Part shown: positions 1-55,959 of the stretch, in pieces
Layout: each line of letters opens with the position of its first letter
Numbering within the stretch: position 1 is the first letter of the stretch
NCBI RefSeq assembly: GCF_003334785.1
Contig: NZ_QOWV01000007.1
DNA from: Escherichia coli
Lineage (GTDB): Bacteria; Pseudomonadota; Gammaproteobacteria; Enterobacterales; Enterobacteriaceae
Direction: 5' to 3' (one strand)
Length of the DNA: 64,000 bases
The notes under the pieces: generated by a model
Told to the model about the DNA's origin: nothing
The model's input: the letters and a program-made list of their open reading frames with translations, nothing else
Database searches by the model: none
Translations under genes and position numbers: made by a program

Positions 1-755
1 ACCCGCCTCGTGAAGTTCCCGGTGCCGCAGAAACTATCCTGCGCCAGCTGGAACATTACGGTCTGCACTGGGACGGCGATGTTCTCTGGCAATCGCAACG
101 TCACGACGCCTATCGTGAAGCACTCGCCTGGTTACATGAACAAGGACTAAGTTATTACTGCACCTGTACGCGTGCGCGTATTCAAAGCATTGGCGGTATT
201 TACGACGGTCATTGCCGGGTGTTGCATCATGGACCAGACAACGCCGCAGTGCGTATCCGCCAGCAGCATCCGGTCACGCAATTTACTGACCAGCTGCGCG
301 GCATTATTCACGCCGACGAAAAACTGGCACGGGAAGATTTTATCATTCATCGCCGTGATGGGTTGTTCGCCTACAACCTGGCTGTTGTGGTTGATGATCA
401 TTTCCAGGGCGTTACAGAAATAGTGCGTGGGGCTGATCTGATTGAACCAACAGTAAGGCAAATCTCGCTGTACCAGCTTTTTGGCTGGAAAGTGCCAGAT
501 TACATTCATCTGCCGCTGGCGCTTAATCCACAAGGCGCTAAACTTTCCAAGCAGAATCATGCGCCTGCGTTGCCGAAAGGCGATCCACGCCCGGTACTAA
601 TCGCGGCACTTCAATTTCTGGGGCAGCAGGCAGAAGCACACTGGCAGGATTTCAGCGTCGAGCAAATCCTTCAGTCAGCCGTCAAAAACTGGCGGCTTAC
701 CGCCGTGCCCGAGTCGGCAATTGTAAATTCAACATTCTCAAATGCGTCATGCTGA
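1..755 (+). CDS. gluQ: Glutamyl-Q tRNA(Asp) synthetase, 5'-truncated by window edge
   Basis: Open frame from window start to stop at 755; the 178-aa ORF-track segment (219..755) has truncated class I glutamyl-tRNA synthetase-like sequence; sits immediately upstream of pcnB as in K-12. Confidence 0.85.
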
Positions 756-814
756 GCTATGATTAGCCGCTATTTTTTTGTCCTGAATGATGTTTGACAC
801 TACCGAGGTGTACT

Positions 815-2212
815 ATTTTTACCCGAGTCGCTAATTTTTGCCGCAAGGTGCTAAGCCGCGAGGAAAGCGAGGCTGAACAGGCAGTCGCCCGTCCACAGGT
901 GACGGTGATCCCGCGTGAGCAGCATGCTATTTCCCGCAAAGATATCAGTGAAAATGCCCTGAAGGTAATGTACAGGCTCAATAAAGCGGGATACGAAGCC
1001 TGGCTGGTTGGCGGCGGCGTGCGCGACCTGTTACTTGGCAAAAAGCCGAAAGATTTTGACGTAACCACTAACGCCACGCCTGAGCAGGTGCGCAAACTGT
1101 TCCGTAACTGCCGCCTGGTGGGTCGCCGTTTCCGTCTGGCTCATGTAATGTTTGGCCCGGAGATTATCGAAGTTGCGACCTTCCGTGGACACCACGAAGG
1201 TAACGTCAGCGACCGCACGACCTCCCAACGCGGGCAAAACGGCATGTTGCTGCGCGACAACATTTTCGGCTCCATCGAAGAAGACGCCCAGCGCCGCGAT
1301 TTCACTATCAACAGCCTGTATTACAGCGTAGCGGATTTTACCGTCCGTGATTACGTTGGCGGCATGAAGGATCTGAAGGACGGCGTTATCCGTCTGATTG
1401 GTAACCCGGAAACGCGCTACCGTGAAGATCCGGTACGTATGCTGCGCGCGGTACGTTTTGCCGCCAAATTGGGTATGCGCATCAGCCCGGAAACCGCAGA
1501 ACCGATCCCTCGCCTCGCTACCCTGCTGAACGATATCCCACCGGCACGCCTGTTTGAAGAATCGCTTAAACTGCTACAAGCGGGCTACGGTTACGAAACC
1601 TATAAGCTGTTGTGTGAATATCATCTGTTCCAGCCGCTGTTCCCGACCATTACCCGCTACTTCACGGAAAATGGCGACAGCCCGATGGAGCGGATCATTG
1701 AACAGGTGCTGAAGAATACCGATACGCGTATCCATAACGATATGCGCGTGAACCCGGCGTTCCTGTTTGCCGCCATGTTCTGGTACCCACTGCTGGAGAC
1801 GGCACAGAAGATCGCCCAGGAAAGCGGCCTGACCTATCACGACGCTTTCGCGCTGGCGATGAACGACGTGCTGGACGAAGCCTGCCGTTCACTGGCAATC
1901 CCGAAACGTCTGACGACATTAACCCGCGATATCTGGCAGTTGCAGTTGCGTATGTCCCGTCGTCAGGGTAAACGCGCATGGAAACTGCTGGAGCATCCTA
2001 AGTTCCGTGCGGCTTATGACCTGTTGGCCTTGCGAGCTGAAGTTGAGCGTAACGCTGAACTGCAGCGTCTGGTGAAATGGTGGGGTGAGTTCCAGGTTTC
2101 CGCGCCACCAGACCAAAAAGGGATGCTCAACGAGCTGGATGAAGAACCGTCACCGCGTCGTCGTACTCGTCGTCCACGCAAACGCGCACCACGTCGTGAG
2201 GGTACCGCATGA
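815..2212 (+). CDS. pcnB: Poly(A) polymerase I
   Basis: ORF track 794..2212 starts at a TTG; the known protein N-terminus [12 protein letters not shown] corresponds to an AUU codon at 815..817. Nucleotidyltransferase motif [10 protein letters not shown]...DFD present. Confidence 0.9.
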
Positions 2213-2688
2213 CAGTGGCGTATATTGCCATAGGCAGCAATCTGGCCTCTCCGCTGGAGCAGGTCAATGCTGCCCTGAAAGCATTAGGCGATATCCCTGA
2301 AAGCCACATTCTTACCGTTTCTTCGTTTTACCGCACCCCACCGCTGGGGCCGCAAGATCAACCCGATTACTTAAACGCAGCCGTGGCGCTGGAAACCTCT
2401 CTTGCACCTGAAGAGCTACTCAATCACACACAGCGTATTGAATTGCAGCAAGGTCGCGTCCGCAAAGCTGAACGCTGGGGACCACGCACGCTGGATCTCG
2501 ACATCATGCTGTTTGGTAATGAAGTGATAAATACTGAACGCCTGACCGTTCCGCACTACGATATGAAGAATCGTGGATTTATGCTGTGGCCGCTGTTTGA
2601 AATCGCGCCGGAGTTGGTGTTTCCTGATGGGGAGATGTTGCGTCAAATCTTACATACAAGAGCATTTGACAAATTAAACAAATGGTAA
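2209..2688 (+). CDS. folK: 6-hydroxymethyl-7,8-dihydropterin pyrophosphokinase (HPPK)
   Basis: 159-aa ORF, full-length match to HPPK; start overlaps pcnB stop by 4 nt (ATGA). Confidence 0.95.
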
Positions 2689-36924: not shown

Positions 36925-37084
36925 GGGTTATTCCTTATCTATCTAATAACGTTGAGTTTTCTGGAACCTGTCCCATTGAACTCTCGCCGGAAAGCTCAAT
37001 AAGACAGGTTCTACGTTTAGTTGCCGCGCTTTTATATGCGCTTGATTTACAACATCTTCTGGATAATTTTTACCAGAAAAATCA

Positions 37085-48304: not shown

Positions 48305-48507
<203 letters not shown>

Positions 48508-48512
<5 letters not shown>

Positions 48513-48897: not shown

Positions 48898-48918
48898 TGT
48901 CTTAAACCTATAAAAAAG

Positions 48919-48936
48919 GCGCAGAATCCTGCGCCT
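48919..48936 (-). terminator. Hairpin with flanking U/A runs between secA and mutT
   Basis: aaaaaa-ggcgca-gaatcc-tgcgcc-tttt read directly. Confidence 0.55.
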
Positions 48937-48956
48937 TTTACTTCAACAGTTAGCTT

Positions 48957-51662
48957 TTATTGCAGGCGGCCATGGCACTGCTTGTATTTTTTACCAGAAC
49001 CGCACGGGCAAGGATCGTTACGTCCTACTTTGCGCTCTCCGGTTTGCGCCGCCAGTGCAGCTGCGGCTGCAGAGTCGTCATCCTGATGGCTAAGCTGCTG
49101 CATTTGCGCTAAACGCTCGGCTTCCATACGACGCTGTTGTTCCAGCTCCTCAACCTCTTCAGGCATACGTACCTGAACTTTGCTCAGCGTACTGATAACT
49201 TCATATTTCAACGACTCCAGCATCGCTGCAAACATGGAGAACGATTCACGTTTGTATTCCTGCTTCGGATCTTTCTGTGCGTAGCCACGCAGGTGGATAC
49301 CCTGACGCAGATAGTCCATCGCTGCCAGGTGCTCTTTCCACAGGGAGTCAAGCGTTTGCAGCATGACGCCTTTCTCGAAGTGACGCATCATCTCAGCACC
49401 AACCACTTCTTCTTTACGCTGATACACTTCGATGGACTGCGCCAGAATGCGCTCACGCAGCGTCTCTTCATGCAGTTCTGGTTCTTTATCCAGCCACTCG
49501 GCAATTGGCAAATCGAGGTCGAAATCGTTCTTCAGACGTTCCTGCAGCCCCGGAATATCCCACATTTCTTCCAGCGACTGTGGTGGAATGTAGGCATCAA
49601 TGGTCGCTTTGAACACATCTTCACGAATGCTGTTAATGGTTTCGCTCACATCGCTGACATCCAACAGTTCGTTACGCTGGGAGTAAATGGCGCGACGCTG
49701 ATCGTTAGCCACGTCATCATATTCCAGCAGTTGCTTACGAATGTCGAAGTTACGGCTTTCAACTTTACGCTGGGCGTTGGCAATCGCTTTAGTCACCCAC
49801 GGGTGTTCAATGGCTTCGCCTGGCTTCATACCCAGTTTACGCATCATGCCGGATACTCGGTCGGAAGCAAAAATACGCATCAGCGCATCTTCCATCGACA
49901 GGTAGAAACGGGAAGAACCAGCATCCCCCTGACGACCAGAACGACCGCGCAACTGGTTATCGATACGACGGGATTCGTGACGCTCGGTACCGATGATATG
50001 CAGGCCACCTGCTTCCAGTACCGCATCGTGACGTACCTGCCAGTCGGCTTTAATTTTTTCAATTTGCTCTGCGGTCGGATTTTCCAGCGCGGCAACTTCT
50101 GCCTGCCAGCTACCACCGAGCACAATATCTGTACCACGACCCGCCATATTGGTCGCGATAGTCACCGCAGCCGGATAACCTGCCTGAGCAACAATCGCCG
50201 CTTCGTTGGCGTGGAATTTGGCGTTCAGGACGTTGTGCTTAATACCGGCTTTGGTCAGTTCGTTTGACACCAGCTCCGATTTTTCGATGGAGATAGTACC
50301 CACCAGCACCGGCTGGCCTTTCGCAGTACGTTCTTTGATATCTTCAATGATCGCCTGAATTTTTTCCGCTTCAGTCATGTAGACCAGGTCCGGCAGATCT
50401 TTACGAATCATTGGACGGTTGGTCGGAACAACGACGGTATCCAGCTTGTAGATTGAGCTAAATTCGAAAGCTTCGGTATCAGCAGTACCGGTCATCCCCG
50501 CCAGTTTTTCATACAGACGGAAGTAGTTCTGGAAGGTGATCGAAGCCAGCGTTTGGTTTTCGTTCTGGATCTGCACACCTTCTTTCGCTTCCACAGCCTG
50601 GTGCAGACCATCGGACCAGCGACGGCCCTGCATGGTACGACCGGTGTGTTCGTCAACGATGATAACTTCACCATCTTTAACGATGTAGTCGACGTCACGG
50701 GTAAACAGCGCATGAGCGCGCAGCGCCGCCGTTACGTGGTGCATCAGCATGATGTTGGCCGGAGAGTACAGAGACTCCCCTTCATCCATGATGCCCTCTT
50801 TCACCAGCAGTTCTTCAATCAGCACCAGACCACGTTCGGTCAGGTTCACCTGGCGAGATTTTTCGTCCACCGAGAAGTGGCCTTCGCCCTGGAAGGTTTC
50901 GGAGTCTTCTTTTTCCTGACGGATCAGGTGCGGAATAATTTTATTCACGCGTTTATACATTTCCGAGCTGTCTTCTGCCGGGCCGGAAATGATCAGCGGT
51001 GTACGCGCTTCATCGATCAGGATGGAGTCCACTTCGTCCACCAGCGCATAGTGCAGTTTACGCTGTACACGTTCTTCAGGGCTGAACGCCATGTTGTCGC
51101 GCAGGTAGTCAAAGCCGTATTCGTTGTTCGTACCGTAAGTGATGTCAGCTGCGTAAGCTTCGCGCTTTGCCGGTGCTGGCATGCCCGGCAGGTTGATACC
51201 GACAGTCAGGCCAAGGAATTCAAACAGCGGACGGTTGTTTTCGGCGTCACGTTGCGCCAGGTAGTCGTTGACGGTAACTACGTGCACGCCTTTACCGGTT
51301 AGTGCGTTCAGGTAAGCAGGCAGCGTTGCGGTCAGGGTTTTTCCTTCACCGGTACGCATTTCGGCGATGCAGCGTTCGTTAAGAACCATACCGCCGAGTA
51401 ACTGAACGTCGAAGTGACGCATACCAAAGACGCGCTTACTTGCCTCACGTACCACGGCGAAAGCTTCCGGGATCAGATTTTCCAGCACTTCGCCTTTTTC
51501 CAGACGTGCACGAAACTCTGCGGTTTTCCCTTTCAGTTCTTCGTCGGAGAGTTTTTCCATCTCCGGTTCCATGGCATTGATGATGTTGACCACTTTGCGC
51601 ATCCGGCGCAGGGTGCGATCGTTACGACTACCGAAAACTTTAGTTAACAATTTGATTAGCAT
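48957..51662 (-). CDS. secA: Preprotein translocase ATPase SecA
   Basis: 901 aa; C-terminal zinc-binding [14 protein letters not shown]. Confidence 0.97.
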
Positions 51663-53484: not shown

Positions 53485-54636
53485 TTAATCAGCTTGCTTA
53501 CGCAGGAATGCTGGGATATCCAGATAATCCGGCTCTTTCGCAGTTTGCGGCGCATTGTCATTCACGACTTTAGCAACCGGCTTCTGCTCCTGGGTCAGCG
53601 GAGCCATCCCATGCTGCTGGTAGCGATCCATCACTGGCTGCTGAACCTGCTTATTGGTCACCAGAGTGATTTCAGGACGTTTGTCCATGCCGATACCTGT
53701 CGCAACAACGGTTACGCGCAGCTCGTCATTCATATCCGGGTCAAGAGAAGTACCGATAACCACAGTCGCGTTGTCGGAAGCAAATGCACGGATGGTGTTA
53801 CCTACCGTTTCGAACTCATCCAGACGCAGGTCGAAGCCCGCCGTGATGTTAACCAGCACGCCGCGCGCGCCAGACAGGTCGATATCTTCCAGCAGCGGAG
53901 AAGAGATAGCCATTTCAGCAGCTTCTTCCGCACGGTCTTCACCGCTCGCCACGCCAGAACCCATCATTGCGTAGCCCATCTCAGACATTACGGTGCGTAC
54001 GTCTGCAAAGTCCACGTTCATCAAACCCGGACGAGTAATCAGTTCAGCGATACCTTGCACAGCGCCTTTCAGTACATCGTTCGCTGCGCCAAACGCATCC
54101 AGCAGGGAGATACCGCGGCCCAGAACTTTCAGCAGTTTGTCGTTCGGGATAGTGATCAGAGAGTCCACATGCTTGGACAGTTCAGTGATCCCCTGCTCCG
54201 CGAATGCCATACGCTTCTTGCCTTCAAAGTTGAAAGGCTTAGTGACGACAGCAACGGTCAGGATACCCAAATCTTTTGCCACTTCAGCGACGACTGGTGC
54301 TGCACCTGTACCGGTACCACCACCCATACCCGCAGCAATAAAGACCATGTCTGCACCTTCCAGCGCCGCACGCAATGCATCGCGATCCTCATCAGCCGCA
54401 TTGCGGCCAACTTCTGGATTAGCGCCAGCGCCCAGTCCTTTGGTGATACCGCTACCGATTTGAATCGTCTGTCCAACCGCTGTTTTACGCAGCGCTTGTG
54501 CATCGGTATTTACCGCGAAGAATTCAACACCTTCAATGCGCTCGCGCACCATGTGTTCAACAGCATTACCGCCGCCGCCGCCGACGCCGATGACTTTAAT
54601 CACCGCGTCATTGGTAAGTTCCATTGGTTCAAACAT
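53485..54636 (-). CDS. ftsZ: Cell division GTPase FtsZ
   Basis: 383 aa; tubulin signature GGGTGTG. Confidence 0.98.
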
Positions 54637-54696
54637 AGTTTCTCTCCGATTTGTGCCTGTCGCCTGAGGCCGTAATCATCGTCGGCCTCATAAAAA

Positions 54697-55959
54697 TTAA
54701 AACTCTTTTCGCAGCCAACTATTGAGTCGCTTGATCCACGAGCCAACTGATGCTGTAACACGTTTTTCTACTTCAGCTTCACCGTTAAGATGTGACTCTT
54801 TCCCATAGTGAAGCAATCCCACCGCCGTCGAATAATACGGCTCCTGAGCATAATCCGTTAAACCGGTAATGTTCAGCGGCGCGCCGATACGCACTTGCGT
54901 ATGAAACACGCGCTGAGCACAGGCTGCAAGACCTTCGATCTGCGCTGCGCCACCGGTTAATACAATGCCTGCCGCCAGGTGATGTTTAACCCCTTGTTGG
55001 CGAAGCTTTTCCTGCAACTGCAATATCTCTTCGTTGACCAGGTTGAGCAGCTCGGTATAGCGCGGCTCGATCACCTCTGCCAGTGTCTGACGTTGCAGAC
55101 TCCGTGGCGGACGACCACCTACGCTCGGCACTTCCACGCTCTCATCTTTTCCAACGATGGAACCCAGCGCACAACCGTGGCGAACTTTAATCGCTTCGGC
55201 GTCGCTTGGCGGCGTGCCAAAGGCGTAAGCGATATCACTGGTCACGACATTGCCAGCATAAGGAATTACCTTAGTGTGGCGCAATGCCCCACCGGTATAA
55301 ACGGCGATATCCATTGTACCACCACCGATATCGACGACGCAGACACCCAGTTCACGTTCATCTTCCGTCAATACCGAATAACTTGATGCCAGTCCGGCAA
55401 ATATCAGTTGGTCAACTTTCAGCCCACAACGTTCAACCGCTTTGACGATGTTTTTCGCCATATCGTTGTGACATGTGATCAGGTGCACTTTTGCCTGCAT
55501 CCGCACGCCCGAAAGTCCTACCGGATTCTTGATCCCTTCCTGATAGTCAATCGCATACTCTTGCGGGATCACATGCAGCACACGATGCTCATCGCGCACA
55601 CGCACCGATTTCGCGGTATGGACGACGTTTTCCACATCTTCTTGCGTCACTTCTTCTTCAGAAATAGGCACCATACCAATTTCATTCTGGCAGCTGATGT
55701 GCTTACCAGAAAGCGCCAGATATACCGAAGAGATCTGACAATCTGCCATCAATTCTGCCTGGTCAATGGCGCGTTGTACGCACTTGACCACGGATTCGAG
55801 GTCGTTCACCCCGCCTTTATCCATACCACGCGACGGGCAGCTGCCCACGCCAATGATATTGACCATACCGTCGGGCAGAACTTCCCCTACTAAAGCGGCA
55901 ACCTTCGCGGTACCAATCTCCAGTCCTACTACCAGTTTTCTGTCCGTCGCCTTGATCAT
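54697..55959 (-). CDS. ftsA: Cell division protein FtsA (actin-like ATPase)
   Basis: 420 aa; 4-nt overlap with ftsQ. Confidence 0.97.

Follow-up and report, generated by a model that had tools for sequence, protein, structure and literature searches.

Initiation at AUU is confirmed for two genes of Escherichia coli, infC and pcnB, and for the latter the codon is described as limiting the amount of poly(A) polymerase I (PAP I), according to PMC2939334, PMC3561954, bioRxiv 063800, PMC5499595, PMC9764084, PMC4447247 and PMC4245954. The AUU start of pcnB is credited to Binns & Masters 2002 (Mol Microbiol 44:1287) in PMC2939334, PMC3561954, bioRxiv 063800, PMC5499595 and PMC4447247. PMC3561954 attributes to this codon a limitation of PAP I synthesis, regards many proteobacterial homologues as possibly AUU-started, and puts PAP I at about 30–50 molecules per cell, with overproduction leading to polyadenylation of tRNAs and to death. 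As for the codon itself, AUU gave about 1–2% of AUG-level initiation in reporters (bioRxiv 063800), and in vitro the addition of IF3 brought about a specific repression of an AUU mRNA (PMC5499595).

The stretch of E. coli DNA analysed here (the window, 64,000 nucleotides) carries the pcnB locus. The AUU start of this gene is already known, having been published in 2002 and being present in reference annotations. What goes beyond the published work is a wider survey of species and genomes and the finding of near-invariant synonymous sites in codons 2–9.

The pcnB locus and its reading frame

Positions 1–2700 of the window correspond to the gluQ–pcnB–folK region of E. coli, an order also met in the RefSeq annotation of identical loci, and the neighbours gluQ and folK are common to the distant loci L084–L087. 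The segment 600–2300 was 100% identical to K-12-type E. coli genomes; of the 5426 complete genomes of the species, 5425 carried it in a single copy. The coding sequence of pcnB, for poly(A) polymerase I, occupies 815..2212 on the plus strand (465 aa; stop TGA at 2210–2212) and was assigned by profile, cluster and PDB matches. The whole protein scored 997.1 bits with the NCBIfam PcnB equivalog NF008634, against a cutoff of 702, its residues 1–464 aligning to profile positions 1–468 of 469 with residue 1 on profile position 1. It was also 100% identical to the E. coli cluster P0002, for which the precomputed Pfam domains are PF01743 (PolyA_pol head), PF12627 (RNA-binding) and PF12626 (Arg-rich C-terminal). 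The structures PDB 3AQK–3AQN cover residues 28–442, their constructs beginning at residue 28.

A preliminary description of this DNA had the longest open reading frame begin at a TTG, and the list of plus-strand reading frames agrees: it extends from TTG 794 as far as the stop TGA of 2210–2212 (794..2212, 472 aa). The in-frame codons are TTG(794) ACA CTA CCG AGG TGT ACT ATT(815) TTT ACC CGA GTC GCT AAT TTT, and the accepted N-terminus of PcnB, (M)FTRVANF, has its first residue at ATT 815–817. That MFTRVANF begins at this ATT had likewise been proposed, and the codon read, the RefSeq/PGAP start and the comparative alignment described below all bear it out. The MG1655 RefSeq gene b0143 (157729..159126, 1398 nt) maps to 815..2212 of the window, and the NCBI PGAP records have the same CDS length (465 aa) with the first codon at window position 815. 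The supplements of the TRAINSPOTTER N-terminomics work hold no PcnB entry, and the text of the Ribo-RET preprint makes no mention of pcnB.

The codon at 815–817 is neither ATG, GTG nor TTG. The preliminary description had taken the weak start to be directly visible in the lack of an ATG or GTG where the protein begins; there is indeed none at 815–817, but this absence alone does not identify the start, as canonical codons lie in frame on both sides of the ATT, TTG 794 seven codons upstream and GTG 848 eleven codons downstream.

The downstream gene folK (2209..2688, plus strand; reading-frame list and RefSeq annotation) begins with an ATG that overlaps the pcnB stop, as ATGA at 2209–2212, and this arrangement suggests that the two genes may be translationally coupled. 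The aligned folK start was ATG in 35 and GTG in 31 of 75 species. The other neighbour, gluQ of MG1655 (b0144; L002 2187–3113, start outside the window), is annotated with 308 aa beginning MLPPYFLFKEM, versus 298 aa in PGAP. Since the first 10 codons of GluQ are not conserved across 76 species while Met11 is (89%), the shorter form of 298 aa is probably the right one.

Conservation of the AUU codon and of its Shine-Dalgarno sequence

As a single genome cannot tell TTG 794, ATT 815 and GTG 848 apart, the pcnB loci of 80 Enterobacteriaceae species, with 86–100% protein identity, were compared, and the three codons could be distinguished because their Shine-Dalgarno geometry and the comparative data differ. 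The ATT is preceded by GAGGTG (805..810, plus strand), which offers a 6-bp pairing to the 3' end of the 16S rRNA and is followed by 4 nt and then the ATT, so that GAGG sits 6 nt from the start. The computed duplex energy for ATT 815 was -9.8 kcal/mol, in comparison with -2.3 for TTG 794, -0.1 for GTG 848 and -4.0 for ATG 968, a further in-frame codon considered below; a value of -8 or stronger is attained by about 5% of the positions in the window. The GAGGTG was invariant at -10..-5, with the 4-nt spacer fixed, in 80/80 species, and was also found in the distant loci L084 and L085. The ribosome binding site of pcnB has been called 'poor' in the literature (PMC3561954), which is at odds with the good and invariant 6-bp match computed here. 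Without a strong Shine-Dalgarno sequence, AUU might not serve as a start.

The codon aligned to 815 was ATT in all of the 80 species, and in 3 more divergent loci (55–67% identity) as well. Within E. coli, the ATT was intact in 5425/5425 genomes with pcnB; the exact 31-mer 800–830 was present in 5421 of these 5425, three carried C->T at -2 and one had GTC->ATC (V5I). All 4 bases directly before the ATT vary among the 80 species, so that its invariance far exceeds chance, and the leader farther upstream varies at every codon position, whereas from ATT to codon 12 (positions 0..35) there are only five variable sites (+8, +17, +23, +29 and +32), all of them third-codon positions and all synonymous (P ~0.002 under random placement among 33 sites). 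As only synonymous third positions vary from the ATT onwards, while the leader varies freely, coding-type constraint begins at this codon. A change of ATT to ATG would leave the protein unchanged, and the retention of ATT across species and strains therefore points to selection for the weak codon.

The arrangement can be followed into more distant relatives. The 62%-identical locus L084, from a 1.08-Mb genome, reads GAGGTG tcct ATT TTT ACC CGA GTT TCT AAT TTT TAC CGA CAC GTC; a relative of 67% identity reads GAGGTG tacc ATT TTT TCC CAG ATC GCA AAC, and one of 55% identity GAGGAT agagtt ATT ATT ACA AAA GTC. The replacements behind the ATT in the distant relatives are conservative (T->S, V->I, R->Q, A->S), and still more distant PcnBs mostly open with a similar short basic/hydrophobic peptide. 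The most distant loci, L087–L089, are called at GTG, with a weak or absent Shine-Dalgarno sequence.

These comparisons establish the position of the pcnB start, its Shine-Dalgarno sequence and its strict conservation. The initiation codon is thus assigned to the ATT (AUU) at 815..817 on the plus strand, on the RefSeq CDS start, the conservation and the profile match from residue 1, and translation of pcnB almost certainly starts there to give a protein of 465 aa, with the AUU limiting the level of PAP I.

Two of the divergent loci showed features of their own. In L089 (286–320), whose PcnB homologue is about 51% identical, the start is called at a GTG directly after AAGGA, and the locus also has AAGGAG, 8 nt and then ATT ATC CGA TTT TTG AAA, which would give a typical M-I-R-F-L-K-K N-terminus; on this sequence, ATT starts may extend well beyond the Enterobacterales. 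In L085 (401–1751; genome CP043324.1), pcnB is called in two pieces, of 316 aa and of at least 150 aa; a frameshift, a pseudogene or a fault in the assembly may lie behind this.

Alternative start codons

One alternative is a minor second product rather than a different main start: a shorter PAP I translated from ATG 968 (Met52; 968..970, plus strand) on transcripts of an internal sigma-S promoter, pS1, besides the AUU-initiated protein. This ATG is presumably the one that Liu & Parkinson 1989 put forward as the start. A proposed AUG start and pS1 are discussed in PMC2939334, where activity of pS1 is reported both in vitro and, for stationary ppGpp0 cells, in vivo, and where two bands in anti-PAP I Western blots are read as possible AUU- and AUG-initiated forms; lowered synonymous diversity in codons 37–48, just upstream of the ATG, also speaks for such a product. 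However, the AUG start is held uncertain by the authors of PMC2939334 themselves, the Shine-Dalgarno pairing of ATG 968 is weak and has 0 spacing, and Met52 is found in only 23/78 species, with Leu in the rest, so a shortened form is not a conserved feature. ATG 968 was rejected as a conserved start on its weak Shine-Dalgarno sequence and the rarity of Met52, and a shorter second product is on balance unlikely.

Synonymous diversity in pcnB is also low at codons 37–48 (window 923–958), the second such stretch of the gene, within which CGC AAA GAT (935–943) is invariant in 78/78 species. The stretch lies just upstream of ATG 968, where the literature places pS1, and its low diversity may reflect the embedded promoter.

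Initiation at the upstream in-frame TTG (794..796, plus strand), the reading of older annotation, would give a protein of 472 aa, which might carry a leader to be removed afterwards. The longest open reading frame has this codon as its first canonical start, Salmonella, Cronobacter and Kosakonia records continue to list a 472-aa PcnB, and the codon at -21 is ATG in two Salmonella subspecies; moreover, older and some recent papers quote UUG, or a protein of 472/473 aa from which a leader of 17 residues is cleaved (PMC3561954 introduction; PMC9764084). Against this, the E. coli start is placed at the ATT, not at the TTG, by both RefSeq curators and PGAP, the 7 codons upstream of the ATT vary at all codon positions with no coding-type pattern, and in 5/80 species there is a stop at or after -21, in some of them at -15. 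As TTG 794 is without a Shine-Dalgarno sequence, as the codon at -21 is canonical in only 28/80 species, and as the reading frame of 43/80 species holds no canonical start before the ATT, it was rejected as the main start, and we consider this reading highly improbable.

In the Salmonella loci L022 and L023, the codon at -21 is ATG instead of TTG; GAGGTG-N4-ATT is intact in both, and the ATG has no Shine-Dalgarno sequence. Many Salmonella enterica records carry an NCBI PcnB of 472 aa (protein P0013), which is either a likely mis-annotation or an N-terminal extension specific to Salmonella.

Initiation at the in-frame GTG (Val12; 848..850, plus strand), with a product of 454 aa and the conserved 815–847 as a non-coding regulatory leader, is hardly credible: although the GTG is kept in 80/80 species and often picked by gene callers (454-aa products in the protein database), although the reported cleavage of a 17-residue leader from the 472-aa form would put the mature N-terminus beside it (PMC9764084), and although the near-invariant 818–841 could in principle reflect non-coding constraint, it has no Shine-Dalgarno sequence at a usable spacing (AAGG abuts the codon), codon 12 is GTC in L084, where ATT and GAGGTG remain, and the region before it behaves as coding sequence, with few changes in codons 3–11, all of them third-position and synonymous among the 80 species, with conservative replacements behind the ATT in distant relatives, as expected for coding sequence, and with a similar basic/hydrophobic N-terminal peptide kept in distant PcnBs. 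GTG 848 was therefore also rejected as the main start, which leaves the AUU at 815 as the preferred one.

Synonymous sites in codons 2–9

The codons that follow the AUU, codons 2–9 (TTT ACC CGA GTC GCT AAT TTT TGC; 818..841, plus strand), are almost invariant even at synonymous sites. Their mean synonymous diversity was 0.013, versus 0.39 for the other fully conserved pcnB codons (78–80 species); so low a value did not occur in any of 100000 random draws, and it was the lowest of 428 sliding windows. A rare codon within the stretch, CGA, was kept in 80/80 species. In the same loci, the folK control had a normal 5' synonymous diversity (0.455 versus 0.474), and gluQ showed no 5' synonymous freeze like that of pcnB codons 2–9.

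From these alignments, the frozen codons suggest that, besides the weak codon, the initiation region behind the AUU is under a constraint at the level of the mRNA or of the sequence. We tentatively raise the possibility, which we consider less likely than not, that the weak start is a fixed module of about 37 nt, composed of GAGGUG, the 4-nt spacer, AUU and codons 2–9 including the rare CGA. If this were true, the module would be an added mRNA-level determinant, one that was not found described in the literature searched, and its role might be to provide the sequence context for measured AUU initiation or a sequence to which a regulator acting in trans could bind, for instance S1, Hfq, an sRNA or PAP I itself.

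A short direct repeat was also seen in this region, CCGAGGT (803–809) and CCGAGTC (822–828), with one copy in the Shine-Dalgarno sequence and the other in codons 3–5. Both copies lie in invariant sequence, and the repeat may be a coincidence.

Promoter and RNA context

A consensus scan revealed a sigma-70-type promoter-like site, TTCTCA-17 nt-TATGAT (735..763, plus strand), that overlaps the end of gluQ, and of which CATTCTCAAA and GCTATGATTAGCCGCT are kept across Enterobacteriaceae genera. This site is probably the pB of the literature, described in PMC2939334 as the major pcnB promoter. When the RNA of 770–900 was folded, its stability was not above that of shuffled sequence (z = +0.72), and the fold therefore gives no support for a structural switch. 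The sequence around the pcnB start is too conserved for a covariation test, and Rfam has no family in the pcnB start region.

Annotation of pcnB starts and other features of the window

Among the best 120 protein matches (P0001–P0120, all Enterobacteriaceae), PcnB is annotated with lengths of 465, 472, 454 and 447–450 aa, and others. Callers unable to use ATT pick the TTG (472 aa), the GTG at codon 12 (454 aa) or a downstream ATG (447 aa), and the signature GAGGTG-N4-ATT could correct pcnB starts in many Enterobacteriaceae annotations.

Elsewhere in the window, the Rfam family PssrA ('plasmid-encoded Shigella sRNA A') was matched over its full length at 54628–54717 on the minus strand, with 105 bits. 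The match lies at the junction of a 420-aa and a 383-aa open reading frame, which we take to be ftsA and ftsZ, and covers the first codons of the 383-aa frame on the same strand. The other Rfam matches in the window, above the gathering score, were to the tp2 sRNA (36927–37040, plus strand), to STnc40 (48912–48981, minus strand, overlapping the 3' end of a 901-aa open reading frame) and to naRNA4, a family of REP-type repeats, in two copies (48315–48508, minus strand).

Discussion

That an AUU start keeps poly(A) polymerase I low, as the preliminary description had also said, is the published and accepted view, and it is supported here; the qualification of the codon as 'deliberately weak' draws on the literature together with conservation. 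In the mechanism proposed, the conserved GAGGUG and its 4-nt spacer would place the 30S subunit on the AUU at 815–817, which would be read by the initiator tRNA as fMet to give MFTRVANF... and a protein of 465 aa. AUU would behave as a near-cognate start that IF3 discriminates against, and initiation would therefore be inefficient; that this discrimination acts on pcnB specifically is presumed. The inefficient initiation would in turn keep PAP I low, the enzyme being toxic when overproduced. The weak start helps to restrict the cell's poly(A) polymerase I to a few dozen molecules, an excess of which polyadenylates tRNAs and is lethal (PMC3561954).

The closest described system is E. coli pcnB itself as reported by Binns & Masters 2002, where gene, codon and interpretation are the same as here, and there is no difference in the finding itself. 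The infC gene, which encodes IF3, resembles pcnB in having a non-canonical AUU start that is kept from species to species and restrains expression, and against which IF3 discriminates (PMC5499595). In contrast to pcnB, the product of infC senses the codon in an autoregulatory loop, whereas the pcnB codon presumably just caps expression. To our knowledge, no feedback has been described for pcnB. Furthermore, infC is still highly expressed, in comparison with the 30–50 or so molecules per cell of PAP I. A third case, ebpA of Enterococcus faecalis, is like pcnB in that a rare ATT start attenuates expression and in that annotators had wrongly set the start on a canonical codon (PMC4447247). Unlike pcnB, ebpA encodes an unrelated pilus tip protein of a Gram-positive bacterium, and its mis-annotated start was downstream of the ATT.
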